Positions 8,406 through 19,631 are shown, counted from the first letter of the stretch. The stretch is 64,000 bases of DNA from Candidatus Buchananbacteria bacterium (GCA_041666945.1 JBAYFY010000002.1:64701-128700), one strand, 5' to 3'. Notes: generated by a model not told the origin, from the sequence alone. Numbers and translations are program-made.

Positions 8406-10136
8406 ATGGGCAGCGCTTTATACCGCAAATACCGGCCGCAGACCTTTGCGCAAATGATCGGCCAAAACCATATCAAAATCACCCTGCAGCATCAGCTGGA
8501 AAGGGGAGAATCGGCGCACGCTTACTTGTTTTGCGGTCCGCGCGGTTTGGGCAAAACCACCAGCGCCAGGTTGTTCGCCAAATCCATTAATTGCGAGAAG
8601 CGCGTAAACGGCGAAAGCGAACCCTGCAATGCTTGCCCGTCTTGCTTGGATATCATGGCCGGCCGCAGCGTGGATATCATTGAGATTGACGCCGCCAGCA
8701 ATACGGGTGTGGATAATGTCCGCGAAAATATTATTGAGAACTCACGCTTCACGCCGGTTAAGAGCAAGTATAAGGTGTTTATTATTGATGAGGCGCACAT
8801 GTTATCTAACGCCTCGTTTAACGCCTTGCTTAAGATTATGGAGGAGCCGCCGGCGCACGTGCTGTTTATTCTATGTACGACGGAAATCCACAAACTGCCG
8901 CTGACCATTATTTCCCGCTGCCAGCGTTTTGATTTCAAGAAAGTTACAGCCGAACAATTATTGAAACGTCTGCAGCTGATTGTTGAGGGCGAGAACAAAA
9001 AGGTTGAAGAAGAAGTGCTCAAGCGCATCGTAGTGGTTTCTGAAGGATGCGTGCGCGATGCGGAAAGTTTGCTGGCCAAGATTCTGTCCTTGGGCGATGA
9101 TATCACCCTGGAACAAGCCGAGATCGTTTTGCCGCGCAGCGATTTTCAGATCATTCTTGATTTTGTGGAATACCTGGCGGAAAAAAACGCCGCCGCCGCC
9201 GTGGAGCATCTCAATCGCTTAATGGAAGAAGGCGTGGATTTGTCGGTATTTACGGAAAACCTGTTGGAATTTTTACGGCAGATGATGCTGGTTAAAGTCA
9301 ACGGCCGCTTGGCGGTTTTCGGTTTGGAATTCAATGACGATTTGGCGGAAAATATCAAGGATTTAGCTGATAAATTCAGTTTTGCCGAAATCGTGGAGAT
9401 GGTGGAGATTTTTTCCGATAAAGCCAAAGAAATCAAACAAGCGCCAATCATGCAATTTCCTTTGGAAATCGCCGTGATCAGATTAGTGGAGCGCGTCTCC
9501 TGCGCCAAGCCGGATAAAATAATTTTCGCCGCCGCATCAGCGCCGGCGGTTGCCGCCGCTCCTACTGTTCCTGCGGCCGGCAAACCGGCTGCCGTCGCCC
9601 CGAGCGTCGCCATAAAAAAAGATACGTCAACCGCTCATGATAAAACTGAAACGGCGACAGTACCGGCCAGCCGCCGGCCAGCTGCTAGTCAGCCGACCAT
9701 TGCCGCCGCTGCCAGTCAGCCGACTTTGGATCAAAATGTGTCTTTGGCCGATATCGCCGCCAACTGGGGCCAGCTTATCAATCGTCTAATCAAGACGAAT
9801 TTTTCCCTGGGATCGCTCTTGCGCATCAGTCAGCCGCTGTCTTGCGACAAAGGAGTGTTGCAGGTCGCTGTTACCAGTTTATTCTATAAGAACCGTCTGG
9901 AGACCCAAGATAACCAGAAAGTGGTAGAAGACACTTTATTGGAAGTGGCGGGGATTAATATCAGAGTCAAAGGAGTGGTGTCGCAAACCGTGGTGCCGCT
10001 GGAGGTAGCGATTGACTATGGCGAGGATTTGGCTGTGCCGTCCAATGATTTTTCACCGCCGCCGGTTCCGCCGGCTCCTGAAACCGTTCCGCCTATTCGG
10101 CTGGATCCGACAGAGGATGTGTTAGGTATGCTATAA
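8406..10136 (+). CDS. dnaX: DNA polymerase III subunit gamma/tau
   Basis: N-terminal clamp-loader AAA+ motifs (GPRGLGKTT, the zinc module CNACPSC, the SRC motif) and a Pro/Ala-rich linker. Confidence 0.9.
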   Translation: MGSALYRKYRPQTFAQMIGQNHIKITLQHQLERGESAHAYLFCGPRGLGKTTSARLFAKSINCEKRVNGESEPCNACPSCLDIMAGRSVDIIEIDAASNTGVDNVRENIIENSRFTPVKSKYKVFIIDEAHMLSNASFNALLKIMEEPPAHVLFILCTTEIHKLPLTIISRCQRFDFKKVTAEQLLKRLQLIVEGENKKVEEEVLKRIVVVSEGCVRDAESLLAKILSLGDDITLEQAEIVLPRSDFQIILDFVEYLAEKNAAAAVEHLNRLMEEGVDLSVFTENLLEFLRQMMLVKVNGRLAVFGLEFNDDLAENIKDLADKFSFAEIVEMVEIFSDKAKEIKQAPIMQFPLEIAVIRLVERVSCAKPDKIIFAAASAPAVAAAPTVPAAGKPAAVAPSVAIKKDTSTAHDKTETATVPASRRPAASQPTIAAAASQPTLDQNVSLADIAANWGQLINRLIKTNFSLGSLLRISQPLSCDKGVLQVAVTSLFYKNRLETQDNQKVVEDTLLEVAGINIRVKGVVSQTVVPLEVAIDYGEDLAVPSNDFSPPPVPPAPETVPPIRLDPTEDVLGML

Positions 10137-10144
10137 TTATAGTA

Positions 10145-10357
10145 TCGTCATTTCCGCAATTATAACATCGTCATTCCCGTAATTATAGTATCGTCATTCC
10201 CGTAACTATAATATCGTCATTCCCGTAATTATAGTATCGTCATTCCCGTAACTATAATATCGTCATTCCCGTAACTATAATATCGTCATTCCCGTAACTA
10301 TAATATCGTCATTCCCGTAACTATAATATCGTCATTCCCGCGCAGGCGGGAATCCAG
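10145..10357. repeat. Tandem array of about 8 copies of a 23-bp unit TCGTCATTCCCGTAACTATAATA, ending in a TCGTCATTCCCGCGCAGGCGGGAATCCAG palindrome
   Basis: Perfect and near-perfect direct repeats start at the dnaX stop codon. There are no unique spacers, so this is not a CRISPR array. Confidence 0.85.
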
Positions 10358-10365
10358 ATATTATT

Positions 10366-10490
10366 TGATCCCCGGACATTTTTTAGTTCACTATACTCGC
10401 TGGGATCTCCGGATAAATCCTCCCGCTTACGCTTACGGATTTTCCGAACCTGCCTGCCGGTAGACAGGGATGACATTAGAGGATATTGGC
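10366..10490. repeat. About 90-bp interspersed element (copy A) containing CTGCCGG(T/C)AG(A/G)CAGGGATGAC
   Basis: Aligns with 41745..41835; the shared core is GGATC(T/C)CCGGA(T/C)AAATCCTCCCGCTTACGCTTACGGATTTTCC. Confidence 0.6.
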
Positions 10491-10546
10491 CATTTTTGAA
10501 TTCCGAGGGTGACGTATAAGGAGATATTCTAATAGTAAATAGTAAT

Positions 10547-11950
10547 ATGAAACGATCAGAAATTATTATTTCCGCCGGTTTAGTGCCAATTGACTATTTA
10601 ATGGTGGTTTTAGCCGGCATCGCCGGTTATTATTTCCGTTTTTGGGAGCCGATCAGCTCTTATCGCCCGGTGATTTTTAATCTGCCGTTCCCGTATTTTT
10701 TGAGCTGGTTGTGGCTGATGGCGGTGATTTGGATTGTCACCTTCGCTTTGGCCGGCCTGTATAACATGCGCGGCACTTCGCGGGCGATTGATGAAGTGTC
10801 CAAAATCATCCTGGCTTCCACCGCGGCCGTGGCCATTTTGATGTTCTTGTTTTTCTTTTCCCGTTCGCTTTTTGATTCCCGTTTCATTATTTTGGCGGCC
10901 TGGGTTTTTTCTATTGTCTGCGTGATGTTCGGCCGCGGCCTGATGCGCTTCTTGCAGCGTCGTTTGTACGGCTGGGGCGTGGGCACTCATCGGGTGATTA
11001 TTATCGGCGAAGGCAACGCGGCCGATGAGGTGGTCAGGGAATTCACGGCTAATCCGCGCGCCGGCTATCGCGTTGTTGACCAATTCAAGAATTTTGATGC
11101 GACGACTGAAAAAGCGCTGCTGGAATTGAAATTGACGGACAAGTTTGACGAGATTCTGGTGGCGCGCGCCGATTTGTCAACCGAAATCTCGGAAAAGCTC
11201 CATGATTTTTCTTATGTCAATCACGTGGAGCTCAAGTATATCGCCGATATTTTTGATTTTCCCATTAATAATTTCGTCATTGATAATATTGCCGGCTTGC
11301 CCGTAGTGGAACTGAAGAAAACCAAACTGGACGGCTGGGGCCGAATCGGCAAGCGTTTGTTTGATTTAATAGGTTCAACTCTGCTGATAATTGTCGCGTC
11401 GCCGCTGTTATTGATTGTCGCTTTGGCGGTTAAATTCAGTTCGCCCGGGCCGGTATTTTTTGCTTACCAGCGCATCGGCGAGCATGGCAAGCCCTTTACT
11501 TATTTTAAATTCCGCTCCATGATCAAGGATGCGCATCAGCTTAGGTTTGACCCGAAATTCGTCAAGCAACAGGAGGATCTGCGCGAAGGCGGCCCCATGA
11601 TGAAATTCAAAAATGATCCGCGAGTAACGCCGATCGGCCGTTTGATCCGCCGTTTTTCCATTGATGAATTGCCGGAGCTGTTTAACGTGTTTTTCGGCAA
11701 GATGTCTTTAGTCGGTCCGCGGCCGCATGAAGTGGAAGAAGTGGCCAAGTATGAGAATTTCCATAAGCGCGTGTTGTCTATCAAGCCGGGCATGACCGGC
11801 ATGGCGCAAGTGTCCGGCCGCAGTGATTTGGATTTTGACGAGGAAGTCAGGTTGGACGTTTGGTATATGGAAAATTGGTCAATGAAACTGGATTTTATGA
11901 TTTTATTCAAGACGCCTTGGGCGGTGTTGAAAAAGAGGAAGGCGGCATAA
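10547..11950 (+). CDS. Undecaprenyl-phosphate sugar phosphotransferase (WbaP/WcaJ-like bacterial sugar transferase)
   Basis: N-terminal transmembrane helices. The C-terminal bacterial sugar transferase domain carries KRLFDLIGS, DELPELFNV and SLVGPRP. Confidence 0.85.
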   Translation: MKRSEIIISAGLVPIDYLMVVLAGIAGYYFRFWEPISSYRPVIFNLPFPYFLSWLWLMAVIWIVTFALAGLYNMRGTSRAIDEVSKIILASTAAVAILMFLFFFSRSLFDSRFIILAAWVFSIVCVMFGRGLMRFLQRRLYGWGVGTHRVIIIGEGNAADEVVREFTANPRAGYRVVDQFKNFDATTEKALLELKLTDKFDEILVARADLSTEISEKLHDFSYVNHVELKYIADIFDFPINNFVIDNIAGLPVVELKKTKLDGWGRIGKRLFDLIGSTLLIIVASPLLLIVALAVKFSSPGPVFFAYQRIGEHGKPFTYFKFRSMIKDAHQLRFDPKFVKQQEDLREGGPMMKFKNDPRVTPIGRLIRRFSIDELPELFNVFFGKMSLVGPRPHEVEEVAKYENFHKRVLSIKPGMTGMAQVSGRSDLDFDEEVRLDVWYMENWSMKLDFMILFKTPWAVLKKRKAA

Positions 11951-13268: not shown

Positions 13269-13492
13269 ATTCTTCCTTTCTCTTTCTGTGTCATTAGTTT
13301 TTTTCGGCAATATGGCGCAAGCCACTGACCGTTTTTAACGTACTACATATCATCATATAATAGTATACATTAATAATTTTGTCAAGTAGTTTATCCACAA
13401 TTAAGATATTTTGTTTAATTTTAGGTATTTTTTTAAGGAAAAATCATTCCATTTTTTTATTTGTCGGAATTTTGTTATTATTAAAGAAGCTT

Positions 13493-15706
13493 ATGGTCAA
13501 ATATGTTTTACGCGCCGCTCCAATGGCCAAGGATTTTAAAATTGATTATGCCAAGGAGTTAAACGAAGATCAATACAAGGTCGTAACCGAGGGCTACGGG
13601 CCTTGTTTAGTTTTGGCCGGCGCCGGCTCGGGCAAGACGCGGACTCTGGTGTACCGCGTGGTGTATTTGTTGGAGCAAGGCGTGCCCGCTTCCAGCATAA
13701 TGCTCGTGACTTTCACCAACAAAGCGGCCAAGGAAATGTTGGAGCGCATTGAAGTGCTGCTTCACGGCGAGGCCAAGGGGTTGTGGGGTGGGACTTTCCA
13801 TCACTTGGGCAATCGGCTGTTGCGCATGTATGGCGAGCGCATTAATATCGCTAATAACTTTACGATTTTAGATGAAGAGGATTCTTTGACTTTACTCAAG
13901 AATTGTTTGAGCCGCAGTAATCCTCCGGAAGACAAATATTTTCCCAAGGCCAAAGTCATCCGCTCCATAATTTCTCTGTCGCAGAATCTGTGTCAGCCCA
14001 TCCGCGAAGTTATTGCCGCGCGTTACGATTATCTTAAAGACAGCTACTTGCCGTGTATCTTGGAAGCTGCTGATCTATACAAAGAACGCAAAACGCAAAT
14101 CAACGCGTTGGATTTTGACGACCTCCTGATCAAGTGGAACGAACTGCTGGAACAAGCGCCGGAAATAAAAAAGCGTTTGGGTGAGAAGTTCGCCTACATT
14201 TTAATTGATGAATTCCAAGACACCAACGCTTTGCAATCCAAAATCATCGCCAATCTGGCCGCGCCCCAGCGCAATATCCTGGCGGTGGGAGATGACGCCC
14301 AAAGCATCTATGGTTTTCGTGGCGCCGATGTCAACCATATTTTGGATTTTCCCAAGCAGTTCCCCGATGCTAAGATTTTACGGCTGGAGATCAACTATCG
14401 TTCCACTCCCGAGATTCTGGCTTTGGCCGATACTTCCATTAACCATAATGACGCCAAGTTTGAAAAGCATTTGAAAGCGATTCGGGCCAAGGGTGCTAAG
14501 CCGGCCGTGGCGGCTTTGACTGATAATTATCAGCAAGCGGAATTCGTCTGCCAACGGATTCTGGATTTGCAACGCGAAGATGGTTTGCCGCTTAACAGCA
14601 TGGCCGTATTATTTAGATCGCACTTCCAATGTCTGGAATTGGAAATGGAACTCAACAAGCGCAATATTCCATATCAGATGCGTGGGGGACTGCGGTTTTT
14701 TGAACAGGCGCACTTAAAAGATATCCTGGCTTACTTAAAAATCTTAGCCAACTTCCGTGACGAGGTTTCTTGGTTGCGGTTACTTAGTATGCAAGGCGGG
14801 ATTGGCGAGATGACGGCGGAAAAGATCTGGCAATGGTTAAGGCAATTTGATGGCGTTTCTTCAATTTTTTCTACATCTTCTTCCGTCATTCACGACCCCT
14901 CTTCCGTCATTCACGACCCCTCTTCCGTCATTCACGACCCCTCTTCCGTCATTCCCGCGCAGGCGGGAATCCAGCATAATAATTCAACCTGGATTCCTGA
15001 TCAAACCAGGAATGACATTTCCTTGGGCGCTAAGGCCGCCAGTGGCTGGTCGGCTTTAAAGCGCACGCTGGAAAAGATTGCGCGAATAGATAAAAATGAT
15101 TTACCGGCGCTTGTTACCGCTATTATTGATTCGGGTTATGAAAAATATTTGCAGGCCAATTATGAGAATTTTCAGGATCGGTTGGATGATTTGACGCAGT
15201 TGACAGAATTCGTCAAGTCCTATGACAGTTTGGAAAGATTTTTGGCCGATACCGCGTTGTCGGAAAACTTTCAGGGCCAATCGCGCGCGCCGCGGCCGGA
15301 GAATGGCAATGAACAAATAATCTTGTCCACCATTCATCAGGCCAAGGGCCTGGAGTGGCCGGCAGTGTTTGTGATCGGTTTGGCGGAGGGCATGTTCCCG
15401 CACGCCAAGGTTTATGACAAACCGGAGGAACTGGAGGAGGAACGCCGGTTGTTTTACGTGGCTTGCACCCGCGCCAAAGACCAGCTGTATTTGAGTTATC
15501 CATTGTTCGGCCGCGACAGCATGCTGCATCCGTCGCAATTTATTAAGGAACTGCCGAGCAAATTGTATGATCGCTGGGATGTGGAGGCGGGCGAAGACGA
15601 GGTGATTTACGTGGATGAAGAAGGGGAACGCGCGTCAGGTCCGGGCAAACGGAAGGGCATTTTGGATTTTGATCCGGAACTGGAGATTGAGGAATCGGAT
15701 TATTAA
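13493..15706 (+). CDS. UvrD/PcrA/Rep-family ATP-dependent DNA helicase (the start is uncertain: 13493 or 13523)
   Basis: Walker A AGAGSGKTRTLV, the DEFQDTN motif, and the VTRAK-like motif VACTRAKDQLYLSY. The N-terminal codons of the listed ORF overlap an AT-rich promoter region that carries a TTATCCACA box. Confidence 0.85.
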   Translation: MVKYVLRAAPMAKDFKIDYAKELNEDQYKVVTEGYGPCLVLAGAGSGKTRTLVYRVVYLLEQGVPASSIMLVTFTNKAAKEMLERIEVLLHGEAKGLWGGTFHHLGNRLLRMYGERINIANNFTILDEEDSLTLLKNCLSRSNPPEDKYFPKAKVIRSIISLSQNLCQPIREVIAARYDYLKDSYLPCILEAADLYKERKTQINALDFDDLLIKWNELLEQAPEIKKRLGEKFAYILIDEFQDTNALQSKIIANLAAPQRNILAVGDDAQSIYGFRGADVNHILDFPKQFPDAKILRLEINYRSTPEILALADTSINHNDAKFEKHLKAIRAKGAKPAVAALTDNYQQAEFVCQRILDLQREDGLPLNSMAVLFRSHFQCLELEMELNKRNIPYQMRGGLRFFEQAHLKDILAYLKILANFRDEVSWLRLLSMQGGIGEMTAEKIWQWLRQFDGVSSIFSTSSSVIHDPSSVIHDPSSVIHDPSSVIPAQAGIQHNNSTWIPDQTRNDISLGAKAASGWSALKRTLEKIARIDKNDLPALVTAIIDSGYEKYLQANYENFQDRLDDLTQLTEFVKSYDSLERFLADTALSENFQGQSRAPRPENGNEQIILSTIHQAKGLEWPAVFVIGLAEGMFPHAKVYDKPEELEEERRLFYVACTRAKDQLYLSYPLFGRDSMLHPSQFIKELPSKLYDRWDVEAGEDEVIYVDEEGERASGPGKRKGILDFDPELEIEESDY
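14872..14975 (+). repeat. In-frame MITE insertion inside the helicase coding sequence
   Basis: Three copies of the 21-bp unit cttccgtcattcacgacccct are followed by cttccgtcattcccgcgcaggcgggaatccag. It translates in frame as SSVIHDP repeated three times, then SSVIPAQAGIQ. The same palindrome family occurs in intergenic DNA. Confidence 0.8.
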
Positions 15707-16936: not shown

Positions 16937-16976
16937 TTAAATTTGGCTATTTATTATTATATTAACCATAAGTAAT

Positions 16977-17026
16977 TTATTTGTGGATAAAAAGCTCTTG
17001 ACAAAATACTTATGATTTGATATAAT
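16977..17026 (+). promoter_or_regulatory. Consensus sigma70 promoter with an upstream DnaA-box-like TGTGGATAA
   Basis: TTGACA at 16998-17003, a 17-nt spacer, TGaTATAAT at 17018-17026, and TGTGGATAA at 16983-16991. An approximately 107-nt 5' UTR runs to the DGR target gene. Confidence 0.6.
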
Positions 17027-17140
17027 AATGTATTAGCAAAAGTCCTGTCGACTTATCTAATTCGTACCTGATAATGGTCGGTTTGGGGCTGGGGCGTGGT
17101 GTCCAGGCAATGAGCTGACCAAAAATAGGAGAGATAGAAC

Positions 17141-17857
17141 ATGGCAAGAAAGAGAACCAGAAAAGTGGAAGCGGTTATTTCGGCAATGGGCGCCTTGTTG
17201 GCGATTGTTGTTGATCTTGTTACCGCTATCCGTGAGCTCGGCGGTAATGTAGGCGAATGCCTGTACCGCCTATCCCAGCCCGAAGGTAAGGGAACTCTGC
17301 AGGCGATAGCTCGGCTGCTGGTAGAAACCAGTCAGCCGGTAACCGCGACCGCGACGATCGCGAAAGAAGCCGTCAGTCAGTATCTGACGACAGCCCATAA
17401 TGTAATTGTGGACTTCAGTCAGAACCTCGAGCAGATGATCGTGGCCGGTTGCTATAACTGGAAAAACGACAACATTACAGCCAACCATTTTCCCATCATG
17501 GGATCGGGCAAACAATCGGTTTTGATTGAGTTGTTGTGGTTCAATCAGTATTTTAAAGATGGCGACGAGGTGATTGCCAAGCTGGCCGAAGTAAATGCGT
17601 GGCTGACCGAGCAAAAAGCCGGCTACAAGTATCGCTGGGCAACCATAGCTGAACTCTTGGCCCTGGGTATTGCCTTCCCTGATCTCCAGCGTCAGTTCCC
17701 TATTGGTGCTTTGGGCTCGATTTGGCACCCGACCGGCCGCCGCCTTTTCGCCTGCCTCGGCAGGAGTGGCGCTGGGCGCTACCTGCGCCTGTGCTCTCTC
17801 GAGCTTGGTTTCGACGACTTTTGGCGCTTTGCCGTTGTCCGCGAGCAATCTTGTTGA
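17141..17857 (+). CDS. DGR target (variable) protein with a C-terminal variable region
   Basis: The last ~127 nt (17722..17848) align with the template repeat at 18126..18253, and mismatches fall almost only at template adenines. An AGGAGAG RBS is present. Confidence 0.8.
   Translation: MARKRTRKVEAVISAMGALLAIVVDLVTAIRELGGNVGECLYRLSQPEGKGTLQAIARLLVETSQPVTATATIAKEAVSQYLTTAHNVIVDFSQNLEQMIVAGCYNWKNDNITANHFPIMGSGKQSVLIELLWFNQYFKDGDEVIAKLAEVNAWLTEQKAGYKYRWATIAELLALGIAFPDLQRQFPIGALGSIWHPTGRRLFACLGRSGAGRYLRLCSLELGFDDFWRFAVVREQSC
17722..17848 (+). other. DGR variable region (VR) at the 3' end of the target gene
   Basis: About 127 bp aligns to the TR with about 24 substitutions at TR adenines and about 2 elsewhere. 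The conserved 3' end ggcgctttgccgttgtccgc is IMH-like. Confidence 0.8.
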
Positions 17858-17898
17858 ACCCTTGATCCCTTTTGTACCTTGACCCCCTTGAAATTTGT

Positions 17899-17940
17899 CC
17901 TCGCAATAACTTAGTTATTGCGAGGATGTTTTATTTTTAC
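17899..17940 (+). terminator. Perfect 12-bp stem-loop just downstream of the VR
   Basis: cctcgcaataac-tta-gttattgcgagg followed by atgttttattttt. It is positioned like the hairpin found 3' of VRs in known DGRs. Confidence 0.6.
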
Positions 17941-18125
17941 GAATTTTTTCTTATACTTATAACAAGGGTTAATATTTCCGCGGTTACGGCTTCGGGATAC
18001 CCGAATAAAAAACAAGATTGCTTGGCGTCTGATGCTGGCGGGCTTTAAAGCCCCGAGTAAAATACAGCTGGAAGATACTGTTTTTACAGTTCGATCGGCA
18101 GTGTCATTGACGGCAGCAGACGAAT

Positions 18126-18253
18126 TTTGGCACCACACCGGCAACCGCAATTTCGCCTACCTCAACAGGAATGACGCTAAGCGCAACCTGAACCTGAACT
18201 ATCTCGAGAATGATTTCAACGACAATTGGCGCTTTGCCGTTGTCCGCCAGCAG
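18126..18253 (+). other. DGR template repeat (TR)
   Basis: Non-coding. It is A-rich relative to the VR. Its 3' end gttgtccgccagcag differs from the VR IMH-like gttgtccgcgagcaa. Confidence 0.8.
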
Positions 18254-18254
18254 T

Positions 18255-18614
18255 TTACTTTTCCATCCTCGCCGTTGGCGGGGATGTTTTTTCCAACCTT
18301 GTTTTCCATGACCAACAGAGCCGGCCGATTTCCTCTGTTTTAAGCGCCAAATTTTTAAATTTACTGTCGTCCAGCAGTTTCATTTCCCAGCACAGGCGTA
18401 GATAAAATTTCAATAGATCATTTTTGCCAATAGCCGCCTGGGCCAAGCCGAGTTTTTTGTCTTTGGGCGAATAATTGGCAACAGCCAATAATTCCAGCAA
18501 TTCCAAAAACAACTGATCCAGCCGCGCGCCCAAAGTGAAGCGCGAAGATTTGGGAAAGTTTTTCAACCAGTCGTGCCAGAGCTTGTAAGCAGTCGTGGCT
18601 TTATGCAAGACCAT
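18255..18614 (-). CDS. avd: DGR accessory variability determinant (Avd, four-helix-bundle protein)
   Basis: The FPKSSRFTLGARLDQLFLELLELLAVAN ... EEIGRLCWSWK pattern matches the four-helix-bundle/bAvd family. It is encoded on the strand opposite the TR and RT and abuts the TR. The likely start is the internal Met MVLHK. Confidence 0.72.
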   Translation of the reverse strand: MVLHKATTAYKLWHDWLKNFPKSSRFTLGARLDQLFLELLELLAVANYSPKDKKLGLAQAAIGKNDLLKFYLRLCWEMKLLDDSKFKNLALKTEEIGRLCWSWKTRLEKTSPPTARMEK

Positions 18615-18650
18615 AAAATTTTCGTCGGGAGGGGGGTTAAATGAAATATT

Positions 18651-19631
18651 ATGCGAGTTGTCAGACAATTGAACCATAGTTTTGAAGAGATAATTTGTTT
18701 AGATAACTTACTGGCGGCCTGGCGTGAATTCGCGCGCGGCAAGAGAGGCAAAAAGGATGTCCAGGAGTTTGAGTGGTCTTTGATGGATAATATTATCGCG
18801 CTTCAGGATGATTTGGCAAGCGGCAATTACCGCCATGGCGACTATAAAGATTTTCATATCGACGATCCCAAACCGCGTCATATCCACAAGGCCGGCGTGC
18901 GCGACCGTTTGGTGCATCATGCGGTATACCGCATTCTGTACCCGTATTTTGATAAAAAATTTATCGCCGATTCGTATTCTTGCCGATTAGACAAAGGAAC
19001 GTGTAAGGCCTTAAACCGATTCCGGCAATTCGCTTATCAAGTCGGTCGCAATAATACTCGCGCTTGCTGGATATTGAAAGGCGATATCAGGAAATTTTTT
19101 GCCAGCATTGATCAGAGGATTTTGAAAATTATTTTAGCCGAGTATATTGGCGATAAAAAAATTTTGGATTTGTTAGATAAAATAATTAATAGTTTCGGCA
19201 TTACTAGCAGAGGTTTACCGCTTGGCAATCTTACTTCGCAATTATTGGTTAATATTTATATGAATAAGTTCGATCAATTCGTTAAGAATCAATTAAAAGC
19301 CAAATATTATATCCGCTATGCCGATGATTTTATAATATTTTCAGAAAATAAAAATTATTTGGACGCTTTAATCCCGCAGTTGGATTATTATTTGACGGAC
19401 AAATTAAAATTGAAACTCCATCCGAATAAAATTTTTATAAAAACCCTGGGTTCCGGAGTGGATTTTTTGGGTTGGGTCAATTTTCCACATCATCGAGTTT
19501 TAAGAACTGTGACTAAAAGAAGGATGTTAAAAAGAATAGGAATTAATCCAAGCCGGGAGACGCTGGCATCTTATCTGGGGTTGTTAAGTCATGGTAATAC
19601 CTATAAATTGCTGGTAAAATTGCCAATATAG
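18651..19631 (+). CDS. DGR reverse transcriptase
   Basis: FEEIICLDNLLAAWREFARGKRGKKDV, HIDDPKPRHIHKAGVRDRLVHHAV and the YIRYADDFIIF (YxDD) box. The domain organisation is typical of DGR RTs. Confidence 0.9.
   Translation: MRVVRQLNHSFEEIICLDNLLAAWREFARGKRGKKDVQEFEWSLMDNIIALQDDLASGNYRHGDYKDFHIDDPKPRHIHKAGVRDRLVHHAVYRILYPYFDKKFIADSYSCRLDKGTCKALNRFRQFAYQVGRNNTRACWILKGDIRKFFASIDQRILKIILAEYIGDKKILDLLDKIINSFGITSRGLPLGNLTSQLLVNIYMNKFDQFVKNQLKAKYYIRYADDFIIFSENKNYLDALIPQLDYYLTDKLKLKLHPNKIFIKTLGSGVDFLGWVNFPHHRVLRTVTKRRMLKRIGINPSRETLASYLGLLSHGNTYKLLVKLPI

Follow-up and report, generated by a model that had tools for sequence, protein, structure and literature searches.

The locus examined here raises two questions: whether a set of repeats and genes in a Candidatus Buchananbacteria (CPR) MAG, in which avd lies on the strand opposite to the template repeat (TR) and the reverse transcriptase (RT), is a functional diversity-generating retroelement (DGR), and where the protein-binding scaffold of its template RNA would lie. 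We analyzed a 64,000-nucleotide stretch of DNA from this MAG (hereafter the window, 64 kb in all); features are on its + strand unless noted. The original prediction of a complete DGR, with Avd opposite to TR and RT, held for all elements to within a few bases, and we are highly confident that the locus is a chromosomal, apparently functional CPR-type DGR of Architecture B3.

The cassette and its Architecture B3 layout

The variable repeat (VR, 17721-17842) and the TR (18126-18247) were aligned at their best ungapped offset of 405, which gave a gap-free match of 122 nt. This formal alignment upheld the predicted adenine bias: 24 of the 25 mismatches were at TR adenines (Fisher p = 1.4e-17), with 24 of the 32 adenines of the TR altered in the VR versus 1 of its 90 non-A positions (C18136). 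All 32 TR adenines occupy first or second codon positions in the target frame, and the VR spans residues ∼194-234 of the 238-aa target, i.e. its C terminus. Both repeats end in a 20-nt GC-rich block, GGCGCTTTGCCGTTGTCCGC (17823-17842 in the VR and 18228-18247 in the TR). Just past it, C18248 and G18253 of the TR are replaced by G and A at the VR and the copies then diverge. Judged by this sequence pattern, the block is IMH-like, which makes the VR end a candidate IMH and the TR end, where the sequence is not identical, a candidate IMH*. No second VR-like copy was found on either strand of the 64-kb window, and when clustered at 90% identity the target stands alone. Other paralogues of this MAG were considered as remote targets of the TR and rejected, the VRs of L007 matching fewer than 70% of the non-A TR positions; the look-up of a further paralogue, P0020, gave no record.

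The minus-strand gene at 18255-18614 encodes a protein of 119 aa. In HMM searches it matched Pfam bAvd above the cut-off of 40 (52.3 bits, E 8.8e-14) and the PHROG family "Avd protein of DGR" (E 7.6e-18), in agreement with its proposed identity as Avd; the match to NCBIfam DivGenRetAVD (E 2.2e-15) reached 56.8 bits, below the cut-off of 80. A metagenome scan with Avd returned one distant locus only.

Wu et al. 2018 gave the name Architecture B3 to the TR-(avd)-RT arrangement, which accounts for 90% of CPR DGRs (PMC5758913). The core order of the locus is the same, with TR at 18126-18247 (+), avd at 18255-18614 (−), and RT at 18651-19631 (+). At such a frequency, an inverted avd is nothing out of the ordinary, and its orientation does not stand as the peculiarity for which it was first taken. 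The layout was shared by 10 of the 10 RT-bearing related cassettes that were fetched; one further locus lacks avd and RT. The order target-TR-(avd)-RT is present in L001, L002, L003, L006, L010, L011, and L013-L017, and each of these loci has its own adenine-biased TR/VR pair except L006, in which no VR was identified. The locus also has the host lineage, gene order, orientation, and reverse-strand avd between TR and RT of described CPR B3 DGRs (PMC5758913), and it resembles them in its short target that lacks a known domain and has a C-terminal VR, and in its chromosomal position in a housekeeping neighborhood. We found no architectural difference from these elements, of which the cassette and its target family are further members. 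Compared with the DGR of Bordetella phage BPP-1 (mtd-avd-TR-brt), the locus has an RT that is 32% identical over its full length, an Avd of the same family, the signature of adenine mutagenesis, a GC-rich IMH/IMH* block, and a C-terminal VR, here in a domain of putative CLec type, whereas it differs in that avd follows the TR and is encoded on the opposite strand and in being chromosomal rather than phage-borne.

The target gene and its flanking elements

The target (variable-protein) gene (17141-17857) encodes 238 aa comprising an N-terminal helical bundle and a C-terminal domain to which we assign, with moderate confidence, a C-type-lectin-like, ligand-binding fold. The family is confined to Patescibacteria, has 49 homologues, and contains no Pfam domain. 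A Foldseek search against the PDB gave no significant match, and nothing was found in a profile search against PDB sequences. The target shares no detectable sequence similarity with the FGE/CLec-fold DGR variable proteins TvpA of Treponema denticola (2y3c), Mtd (1yu0), or the C-terminal, DUF1566-type region of Legionella Lcl (8q4e), their Foldseek matches to it were not significant, and it differs from these proteins by its N-terminal four-helix domain and very small size (238 aa). The N terminus of the target consists of RKRTRK followed by a 19-residue stretch with a mean Kyte-Doolittle hydropathy of 2.39 and looks like a signal anchor. The earlier statement that the target has no obvious export signal is thus doubtful for this protein, yet such an N terminus is present in only 18 of the 49 homologues.

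A sigma70-type promoter (16998-17026; TTGACA-17-TATAAT with an extended TG) matches the consensus at 12 of 12 positions and, given its location, leaves the target with a leader of roughly 107 nt, both as predicted. The pattern TTGACAAA...TATAAT is kept upstream of target homologues (eight loci). Just 5' of the SD (17127-17133), the 5' UTR contains a conserved 45-nt stem-loop with an internal loop (17076-17120), for which alignment and RNAalifold over eight loci gave 17 pairs, 9 of them with compensatory changes; it had no Rfam match.

Between the target stop codon and the following terminator are three CCTTGA direct repeats (17860-17891, starting at 17860, 17877, and 17886), out of 14 occurrences on the + strand of the 64-kb window. 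Counting CTTGA, CCTGA, or CTTTGA as the same type, one to four copies were present 3' of all 13 VRs examined in relatives (at least two in 12 of them), and none was found after the TR in the relatives examined. The perfect hairpin that had been noted after the VR was present, with a length of 14 rather than 12 bp: the inverted repeat 17898-17911/17913-17926 forms, with a T-run, a terminator-like element (17896-17928) that begins 54 nt past the VR core. It looks like the ordinary intrinsic terminator of the target gene, unlike the GC-rich cruciform that abuts the IMH in BPP-1.

A covarying RNA leader and a possible permuted template RNA

The sequence 5' of the TR encodes a conserved, strongly covarying RNA leader of ∼160 nt. 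It is preceded by a putative −10-like box read from the sequence, TATAAC (17958-17963), which is weak and under the promoter-scan threshold in the window, whereas most relatives have a TATAAT/TAAAAT-type box. The 5' stem-loop SL0 (17966-18002), with the conserved loop CGGYYACGGCU, was obtained by RNAalifold from seven loci, and visual inspection showed a comparable hairpin in L013-L017. Two contiguous strands follow: p (AAGATTGCTTGG, 18014-18025), the 5' strand of helix H1, which pairs with the 3' flank of the TR, and a' (18026-18037), the 5' strand of helix H2, which pairs with the segment directly 5' of the TR. Their partners, like p and a' themselves identified by covariation, are strand t (CCAGCAGTTTA, 18247-18257), an IMH*-like flank that overlaps the avd stop codon, and strand a (18111-18122), which ends 3 nt before the TR. 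Alignment places between a' and a the short stem-loop H3 (18038-18054), a conserved single-stranded segment (GAGUAAAAUACA, consensus GAAUAAGAUNCA; 18055-18066), and the stem-loop H4 (18067-18099) with its conserved internal motif GAGAG...UCAA. Past the TR by 16 nt is a conserved 10-bp hairpin with a U-run (18264-18293), located within the final codons of avd, which reads in the opposite direction; all 12 of 12 cassettes had a hairpin with a U-run 12 to 24 nt past the TR, although the stem sequences varied. This hairpin is probably an Avd-binding stem-loop, the terminator of the DGR RNA, or both. An ORF on the + strand (18032-18343) was rejected as a gene, since it consists of the TR in the VR frame plus the leader and the hairpin.

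RNAduplex comparison of the leader with the TR flank was too permissive, and column-wise pair counting was used instead. In an alignment of 12 sequences from a few clades, 89.1% of the cells in the four helices were paired versus 32 to 48% in slid controls, 28 of 36 pairs changed on both sides, and 98 compensatory cells were counted versus 9 to 22 in controls. The covariation score was 0.679 compared with 0.09 to 0.16 for the controls, and 0 of 500 shuffles reached it. H1 alone had 81% of its cells paired (slid controls, 36-57%) with changes on both sides in 8 of 11 pairs and two recurrently mismatched positions, and in H2, 10 of the 12 pairs changed on both sides and 92% of the cells were paired. 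H1 and H2 sit exactly at the two boundaries of the TR/VR homology. A covariance model of the leader, R1, had a single match in the window (18008-18125, 98.8 bits) and also found two copies outside its training set, in L005 and as a second copy in L013; it returned nothing significant in orphan-target loci or BPP-1. No Rfam family reached the gathering threshold in the window, with chance-level matches only at E ≤ 1 in 16950-18700, and viral contigs scanned for the leader-motif pattern gave no match.

Comparison with the order of elements in the BPP-1 RNA, taken from Handa et al. (bioRxiv 10.1101/2023.10.23.563531) together with the BPP-1 sequence, suggests, by a slight preference on our part, that the template RNA of the window is a discrete transcript of ∼325 nt whose protein-binding scaffold is 5' of the TR, making it a circular permutation of the BPP-1 DGR RNA. 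The −10 box near 17958 and the U-run at 18293 would mark the two ends of this transcript. The continuous leader strand 18014-18037 would pair first with the 3' flank of the TR (H1, analogous to the BPP-1 template:primer duplex) and next with the sequence directly preceding the TR (H2, the counterpart of the cPRT-Stop duplex), leaving the TR looped out between the helices. This strand would be followed by two stem-loops, the first of them short, with a GAA-type single strand between them, in the same order as BPP-1 Sp59-139, and the hairpin just 3' of the TR would correspond to the Avd-binding stem-loop. Table S3 of Handa et al. (10.1101/2023.10.23.563531) gives this label to a hairpin of the same kind in CPR DGRs.

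Both RNAs have a stem-loop right after the TR and a pair of adjacent TR-bracketing helices that use one common continuous strand; beyond the helices, both continue with a short stem-loop, then GAA, a single strand, and another stem-loop. They differ in that BPP-1 has its primer strand, stop-duplex strand, and RT-binding elements 3' of the TR (in Sp), whereas here the continuous strand and most of the structured RNA are 5' of it, and in that the TR-proximal hairpin here has a U-run and is inside the avd coding sequence. The correspondence is one of order and shape only, with no RNA sequence similarity. Because the pairing strand and stem-loops are 5' of the TR, and avd antisense sequence lies past the hairpin, the window RNA can be BPP-1-like at most in permuted form. 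For B3-type (CPR) DGRs as a class, we put at even chances that their template RNAs are circular permutations of the BPP-1 RNA, with the priming, stop-duplex, and RT-binding elements in a leader of ∼110 nt (18014-18122). Such an RNA would end at the terminator-like Avd-binding hairpin, which lies antisense within the stop region of avd; the leader would prime reverse transcription in cis near G18024/G18025, and synthesis would start within the GC-rich IMH* block and stop at H2. The same leader strand could pair with the VR-specific flank as well (12 of 12 in the window); in L013-L017, where the TR base leaves a mismatch, its VR counterpart pairs. As a weaker possibility, this complementarity could help to steer the cDNA to the VR and not the TR.

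Alternatively, the leader could be real without serving as the RT-Avd scaffold, with the priming and stop elements located downstream of the TR in avd-antisense sequence as in BPP-1. As a regulatory RNA, it could be an attenuator or processing signal for RT read-through or could protect the TR transcript from the convergent avd transcript. The 36-bp avd-RT spacer contains no obvious promoter for the RT, which makes read-through past the post-TR hairpin plausible, and Table S3 of Handa et al. (10.1101/2023.10.23.563531) lists, for CPR DGRs, duplexes between 40 nt upstream and 45 to 62 nt downstream of the TR. The downstream partner predicted there for the CPR upstream strand differs from the leader pairing found here. 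Of the 12 pairs that leader strand a' forms with the segment directly 5' of the TR, 10 are compensated, whereas the downstream avd-antisense candidates displayed, by eye, no compensatory pattern across loci. The order of p, a', short stem-loop, GAA, single strand, and stem-loop moreover parallels BPP-1 Sp46-139, and both helices coincide with the TR/VR homology boundaries. We consider a purely regulatory leader unlikely and favor the permuted RNA. Full-text literature searches, exclusive of Paul et al. 2017 and of Handa et al. as published in Nature, returned no prior description of a permuted CPR DGR RNA, and the apparent upstream position of the template RNA scaffold may be the one new feature of the locus.

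Activity, the reverse transcriptase, and significance

In the proposed mechanism, the TR-containing RNA would be reverse transcribed by an RT-Avd complex with random misincorporation opposite template adenines, and the cDNA would then substitute for the VR. Up to 32 adenine positions, all in codon positions 1 or 2, would be recoded within the last ∼40 residues of the target. We infer that the element is currently active, and the ligand and functional role of its target is similarly inferred. That the cassette is instead a fossil, with old VR differences and a target that is no longer diversified, seems quite improbable. Decay does occur among relatives, L005 having kept target, leader, and TR with its hairpin, avd, and RT gone, and L013 carrying a second leader beside a truncated avd. 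In the window cassette, by contrast, all ORFs are intact, the VR departs from the TR at just 1 of the 90 non-A positions, and the RT catalytic motifs, RNA helices, and 3' hairpin are all kept.

The RT (18651-19631, 326 aa) was identified by profile and sequence matches and contains the motifs LGNLTSQ and YADD. Fourteen nucleotides before its start, the 36-bp avd-RT spacer holds a G-run (GGGAGGGGGG, 18627-18636) that is likely, on sequence grounds, to be its ribosome-binding site; runs of ∼8 to 12 G are present in the five relatives with a comparable spacer. The protein matched RVT_1 (E 1.3e-21), the PHROG reverse transcriptase family (E 1.8e-101), and, with 32% identity over 318 aa including the GxxxSQ motif, Brt of Bordetella phage BPP-1 (E 3e-53). 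Its closest solved structure was 8ub7_A (328 aa, E 3.9e-45), with group II intron RTs at only ∼1e-16. These motifs and matches agree with the suggestion that the YxDD-containing protein is a DGR-type RT. The best NCBIfam match was a group II intron RT/maturase model, with no DGR-RT model among the matches, and several homologues carry group II intron-type annotation in GenBank; a group II intron, retron, or defence RT lying by coincidence beside the repeat is nevertheless exceedingly improbable, and a group II intron or retron identity was rejected, because the model scored 132 bits, far under its cut-off of 300, Brt and 8ub7 matched much better, an Rfam gathering scan of the whole window detected no group II intron RNA or retron ncRNA, and the neighboring Avd and adenine-specific repeat are diagnostic of a DGR.

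As a DGR, the locus is one more example of a very large and already catalogued class. CPR DGRs are extremely abundant: a single search returned at least 7,899 close RT homologues (E ≤ 1e-60), and the named ones among the best 120 of these were nearly all from Patescibacteria lineages. B3-type (CPR) DGRs are probably the most numerous DGRs in nature. To our knowledge, all mechanistic work on DGRs comes from one phage element, in which the RNA scaffold is downstream of the template. A permuted, upstream scaffold would explain how an inverted avd abutting the TR is tolerated. If correct, the model would also define a compact RNA of ∼325 nt for reconstitution and engineering and provide a covariance model able to find TRs and orphan cassettes in metagenomes.

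Adenine-biased TR/VR pair and the target gene

Ungapped comparison of the end of the target gene (17141-17857) with the non-coding segment further downstream was best at an offset of 405, which aligned the VR (17721-17842, + strand) with the TR (18126-18247, + strand) over 122 nt. Twenty-four of the 25 mismatches were located at TR adenines and one at a non-adenine; 24 of the 32 TR adenines were changed in the VR (12 to G, 6 to C, and 6 to T) in comparison to 1 of the 90 non-adenine positions (Fisher p 1.4e-17). All 32 TR adenines occupy codon position 1 or 2 of the target frame, and Asn codons are abundant when the TR is translated in that frame. Both repeats end in GGCGCTTTGCCGTTGTCCGC (17823-17842 in the VR and 18228-18247 in the TR) and part directly past it. 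This formal alignment and count bear out the template-adenine bias and the conserved terminal block, followed by divergence, of the original prediction. No second VR emerged from an adenine-blind scan that covered the 64-kb window on both strands. On the basis of established DGR biology, RT-Avd would copy the TR RNA, misincorporating nucleotides opposite its adenines, and the VR would be replaced by the resulting cDNA; this exchange would recode as many as 32 positions among the final ~40 target residues, which probably belong to a ligand-binding domain.

The target protein had no match in Pfam, NCBIfam, or PHROG. Its 49 homologues were all from Patescibacteria MAGs or metagenomes, and WCT16_01655 of a Candidatus Buchananbacteria MAG is an identical protein. 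An AlphaFold model built on the homologue alignment was confident (pLDDT 92.3), with a helical bundle predicted at the N-terminus and an alpha/beta domain at the C-terminus; because neither Foldseek nor a PDB profile search gave a significant match in the PDB, we grade the fold assignment as probable and not proven. The N-terminus resembles a signal anchor (RKRTRK, then 19 residues with a mean hydropathy of 2.39), which makes the suggested lack of an obvious export signal doubtful, but such an N-terminus is found in only 18 of the 49 homologues. The consensus promoter expected upstream of the target was located by promoter scan at 16998-17026 (+ strand). A terminator-like hairpin (17896-17928, + strand), followed by a T-run, begins 38 nt past the target stop codon; a perfect hairpin had been anticipated after the VR, but the perfect inverted repeat within it is 14 nt rather than 12.

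The target 5' UTR holds, between promoter and SD, a 45-nt stem-loop (17076-17120) that has an internal loop and is conserved: target homologues at 8 loci, orphan targets among them, have it on their upstream side. It shows compensatory changes in 9 of its 17 pairs and matched no Rfam family; it is possibly a cis-regulatory RNA of the target gene family. CCTTGA-type direct repeats with a period of about 8 nt lie 3' of the stop codon in all VR-bearing genes, in one to four copies (at least two at 12 of the 13 VRs), at 17860-17891 in the window and after the VRs in the related loci L001-L005, L008, L010, and L011, orphan targets included; they are absent after the TR. CCTTGA occurs 14 times on the window + strand, three of them within the 32 nt of 17860-17891. 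These repeats could be a VR-side recognition element.

Avd, reverse transcriptase, and cassette order

The opposite-strand gene at 18255-18614 (- strand) encodes a product that matched Pfam bAvd above the gathering score (E 8.8e-14) and the PHROG family 'Avd protein of DGR' (E 7.6e-18), fell below the NCBIfam cut-off, and showed weak similarity to BPP-1 Avd, consistent with its earlier assignment as avd. The RT (18651-19631, + strand; RVT_1) possesses LGNLTSQ and YADD motifs, the latter being the predicted YxDD box, and is 32% identical to BPP-1 Brt over 318 residues (E 3e-53); its nearest solved structure is 8ub7_A (E 3.9e-45), compared to about 1e-16 for group II intron RTs. A match to the NCBIfam group II intron model arises because that library has no DGR-RT model; its 132 bits fall well short of the cut-off of 300, and with 8ub7_A and Brt much closer, a group II intron RT was rejected. 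At least 7,899 proteins were RT homologues at E <= 1e-60; the best 120 of these were about 59-70% identical to the RT, and the named proteins among them were almost all of Patescibacteria lineages. By these matches, the RT and Avd are of the DGR type, and with TR/VR, RT, and Avd all confirmed the DGR is complete, as predicted.

The avd and RT starts are divergent and 36 bp apart, and the spacer contains the G-run GGGAGGGGGG (18627-18636, + strand), which is probably the RT ribosome-binding site. G-runs of variable length (about 8-12 G) occur in relatives with a comparable spacer, five by our count; those named are L001, L002, L003, and L010, not L011. Because the spacer is too short for two divergent promoters, avd transcription presumably starts inside the RT 5' region, where a promoter-like site (18819-18792, - strand) is a candidate; such a transcript would extend antisense into the TR.

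Among the compared loci, which encode target or RT homologues, the order target(s), TR, opposite-strand avd, RT is conserved in L001, L002, L003, L006, L010, L011, and L013-L017, each with its own adenine-biased TR/VR pair(s) except L006, in which no VR was identified. The window cassette matches, in order and avd orientation, Architecture B3 of the DGR cassette classification of Wu et al. 2018 (PMC5758913), defined by the order TR-(avd)-RT and a reverse-strand avd and found by them in 90% of CPR DGRs. An inverted avd is therefore the norm for the host lineage, and the orientation is not the unusual trait it had been taken for. We conclude that the locus is a genuine, intact, ordinary CPR DGR. 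According to a reading of translations, housekeeping genes flank the locus, with a UvrD-like helicase on the upstream side and RmuC-like, MTA phosphorylase, and APRT-like ORFs on the downstream side; no phage-like genes were apparent among them. Within the UvrD-like helicase ORF (13379-15706), SSVIHDP is repeated three times as a short amino-acid tandem, and the opposite-frame ORFs in this region are artefacts of it.

Target homologues stand alone in L004, L008, and L012. L008 and L013 lie on the same 957-kb contig; the closest target homologue (62% identity; L008) lies roughly 62-70 kb from the L013 cassette, whose TR serves a different target family, and retains the conserved promoter, UTR stem-loop, and CCTTGA repeats. 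Other contigs of the window's MAG carry at least five more target paralogues (P0020, P0022, P0024, P0034, and P0036), some in tandem, and the VRs of a paralogue pair at a contig end (L007) did not match the window TR; a second DGR or orphan targets are probably present in this genome.

Conserved RNA helices around the TR

The ~160 nt from the target terminator to the TR (the leader) are conserved across loci, with a TATAAT-like box in front in most of them. RNAalifold proposed two long-range helices from seven close relatives. Pair counting in A5, a 12-sequence alignment of the leader joined to the TR 3' flank, supported four + strand helices: H1 (18014-18025 paired to 18247-18257, at the 3' boundary of the TR and its flank), H2 (18026-18037 paired to 18111-18122, which stops 3 nt short of the TR), the short stem-loop H3 (18038-18054), and the stem-loop H4 (18067-18099). 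In A5, 89.1% of the H1-H4 cells were paired in comparison to 32-48% with slid partners, 28 of 36 pairs were changed on both sides, compensatory cells numbered 98 versus 9-22 in controls, and the covariation score was 0.679 versus 0.09-0.16; none of 500 shuffles matched these values. H1 by itself was 81% paired (versus 36-57%). The leader covariance model R1 had a single window match (18008-18125, 98.8 bits) and recovered two copies outside its training set, in L005 and as a second copy in L013; orphan-target loci and BPP-1 gave no significant match, and no Rfam family matched the leader RNA. A 10-bp hairpin with a U-run (18264-18293, + strand) is located 16 nt past the TR, inside the final codons of avd, and an equivalent with differing stem sequence follows the TR in 12 of 12 cassettes examined; for CPR DGRs, Table S3 of Handa et al. 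(bioRxiv 10.1101/2023.10.23.563531) gives such a hairpin as the putative stem-loop bound by Avd. Conserved, covarying helices surround the TR, and the upstream RNA scaffold, backed by covariation, is apparently new to the literature. Handa et al. limited their analysis to the 40 nt before and the 100 nt after each TR and proposed upstream/downstream duplexes for CPR DGRs, so the upstream arrangement was not visible to their approach.

L005 has kept target and TR but lacks avd and RT; its leader (96 bits) is retained within 10001-11100, the post-TR hairpin is also missing, and its VR is adenine-biased but with 7 non-A mismatches. Either this cassette is decaying or its template is served by an RT and Avd in trans. 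The second L013 leader (1852-1957, 87 bits with R1) adjoins a truncated bAvd gene (2088-2333), both upstream of the complete cassette, and together they appear to be a decayed tandem DGR cassette.

The leader strand 18011-18022 is complementary at 12 of 12 positions to the VR 3' flank (17844-17855), with a duplex of -20.8 kcal/mol compared to -13.2 kcal/mol for the TR flank. At the two recurrent H1 mismatches in L013-L017, the VR base would pair whereas the TR base does not. A role for this complementarity in target choice is speculative.

Comparison with the BPP-1 RNA

Cryo-EM work by Handa et al. gives the order of the Bordetella phage DGR RNA, and we checked it against the sequence of BPP-1. 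An avd strand upstream of the TR comes first; the TR is followed by the Avd-binding stem-loop (Sp3-33), by the primer strand, whose end is A56, and by the stop-duplex strand (Sp59-70), which pairs with that avd strand. Next come a short stem-loop, G79 A80 A81, the 'thumb ring', which is single-stranded, and the bRT-binding stem-loop, and the TR loops out between the two adjacent duplexes. The window RNA starts with a strand that pairs with the TR 3' flank, followed by one that pairs with the stretch immediately 5' of the TR; a short stem-loop and GA(A/G)U lead into a conserved single strand of ~10 nt, and a stem-loop, the partner strand, the TR, its 3' flank, and the hairpin complete the order. 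The cyclic order is the same but the chain break is elsewhere, and we consider the chances about even, or slightly better, that the window template RNA is a circular permutation of the BPP-1 RNA. The H1-H4 helices themselves are well supported; their functional equivalence to BPP-1 elements is suggested by analogy only. Speculatively, cis-priming would proceed from about G18024/G18025 and stop at H2, and transcripts would be partitioned between terminated template RNA and read-through RT mRNA. As a DGR, the locus is one more example of a known CPR type, with its inverted avd expected, and is of little interest in itself. The upstream RNA scaffold adds moderately to this, and circular permutation, if true, would explain how B3 elements manage without a downstream spacer.
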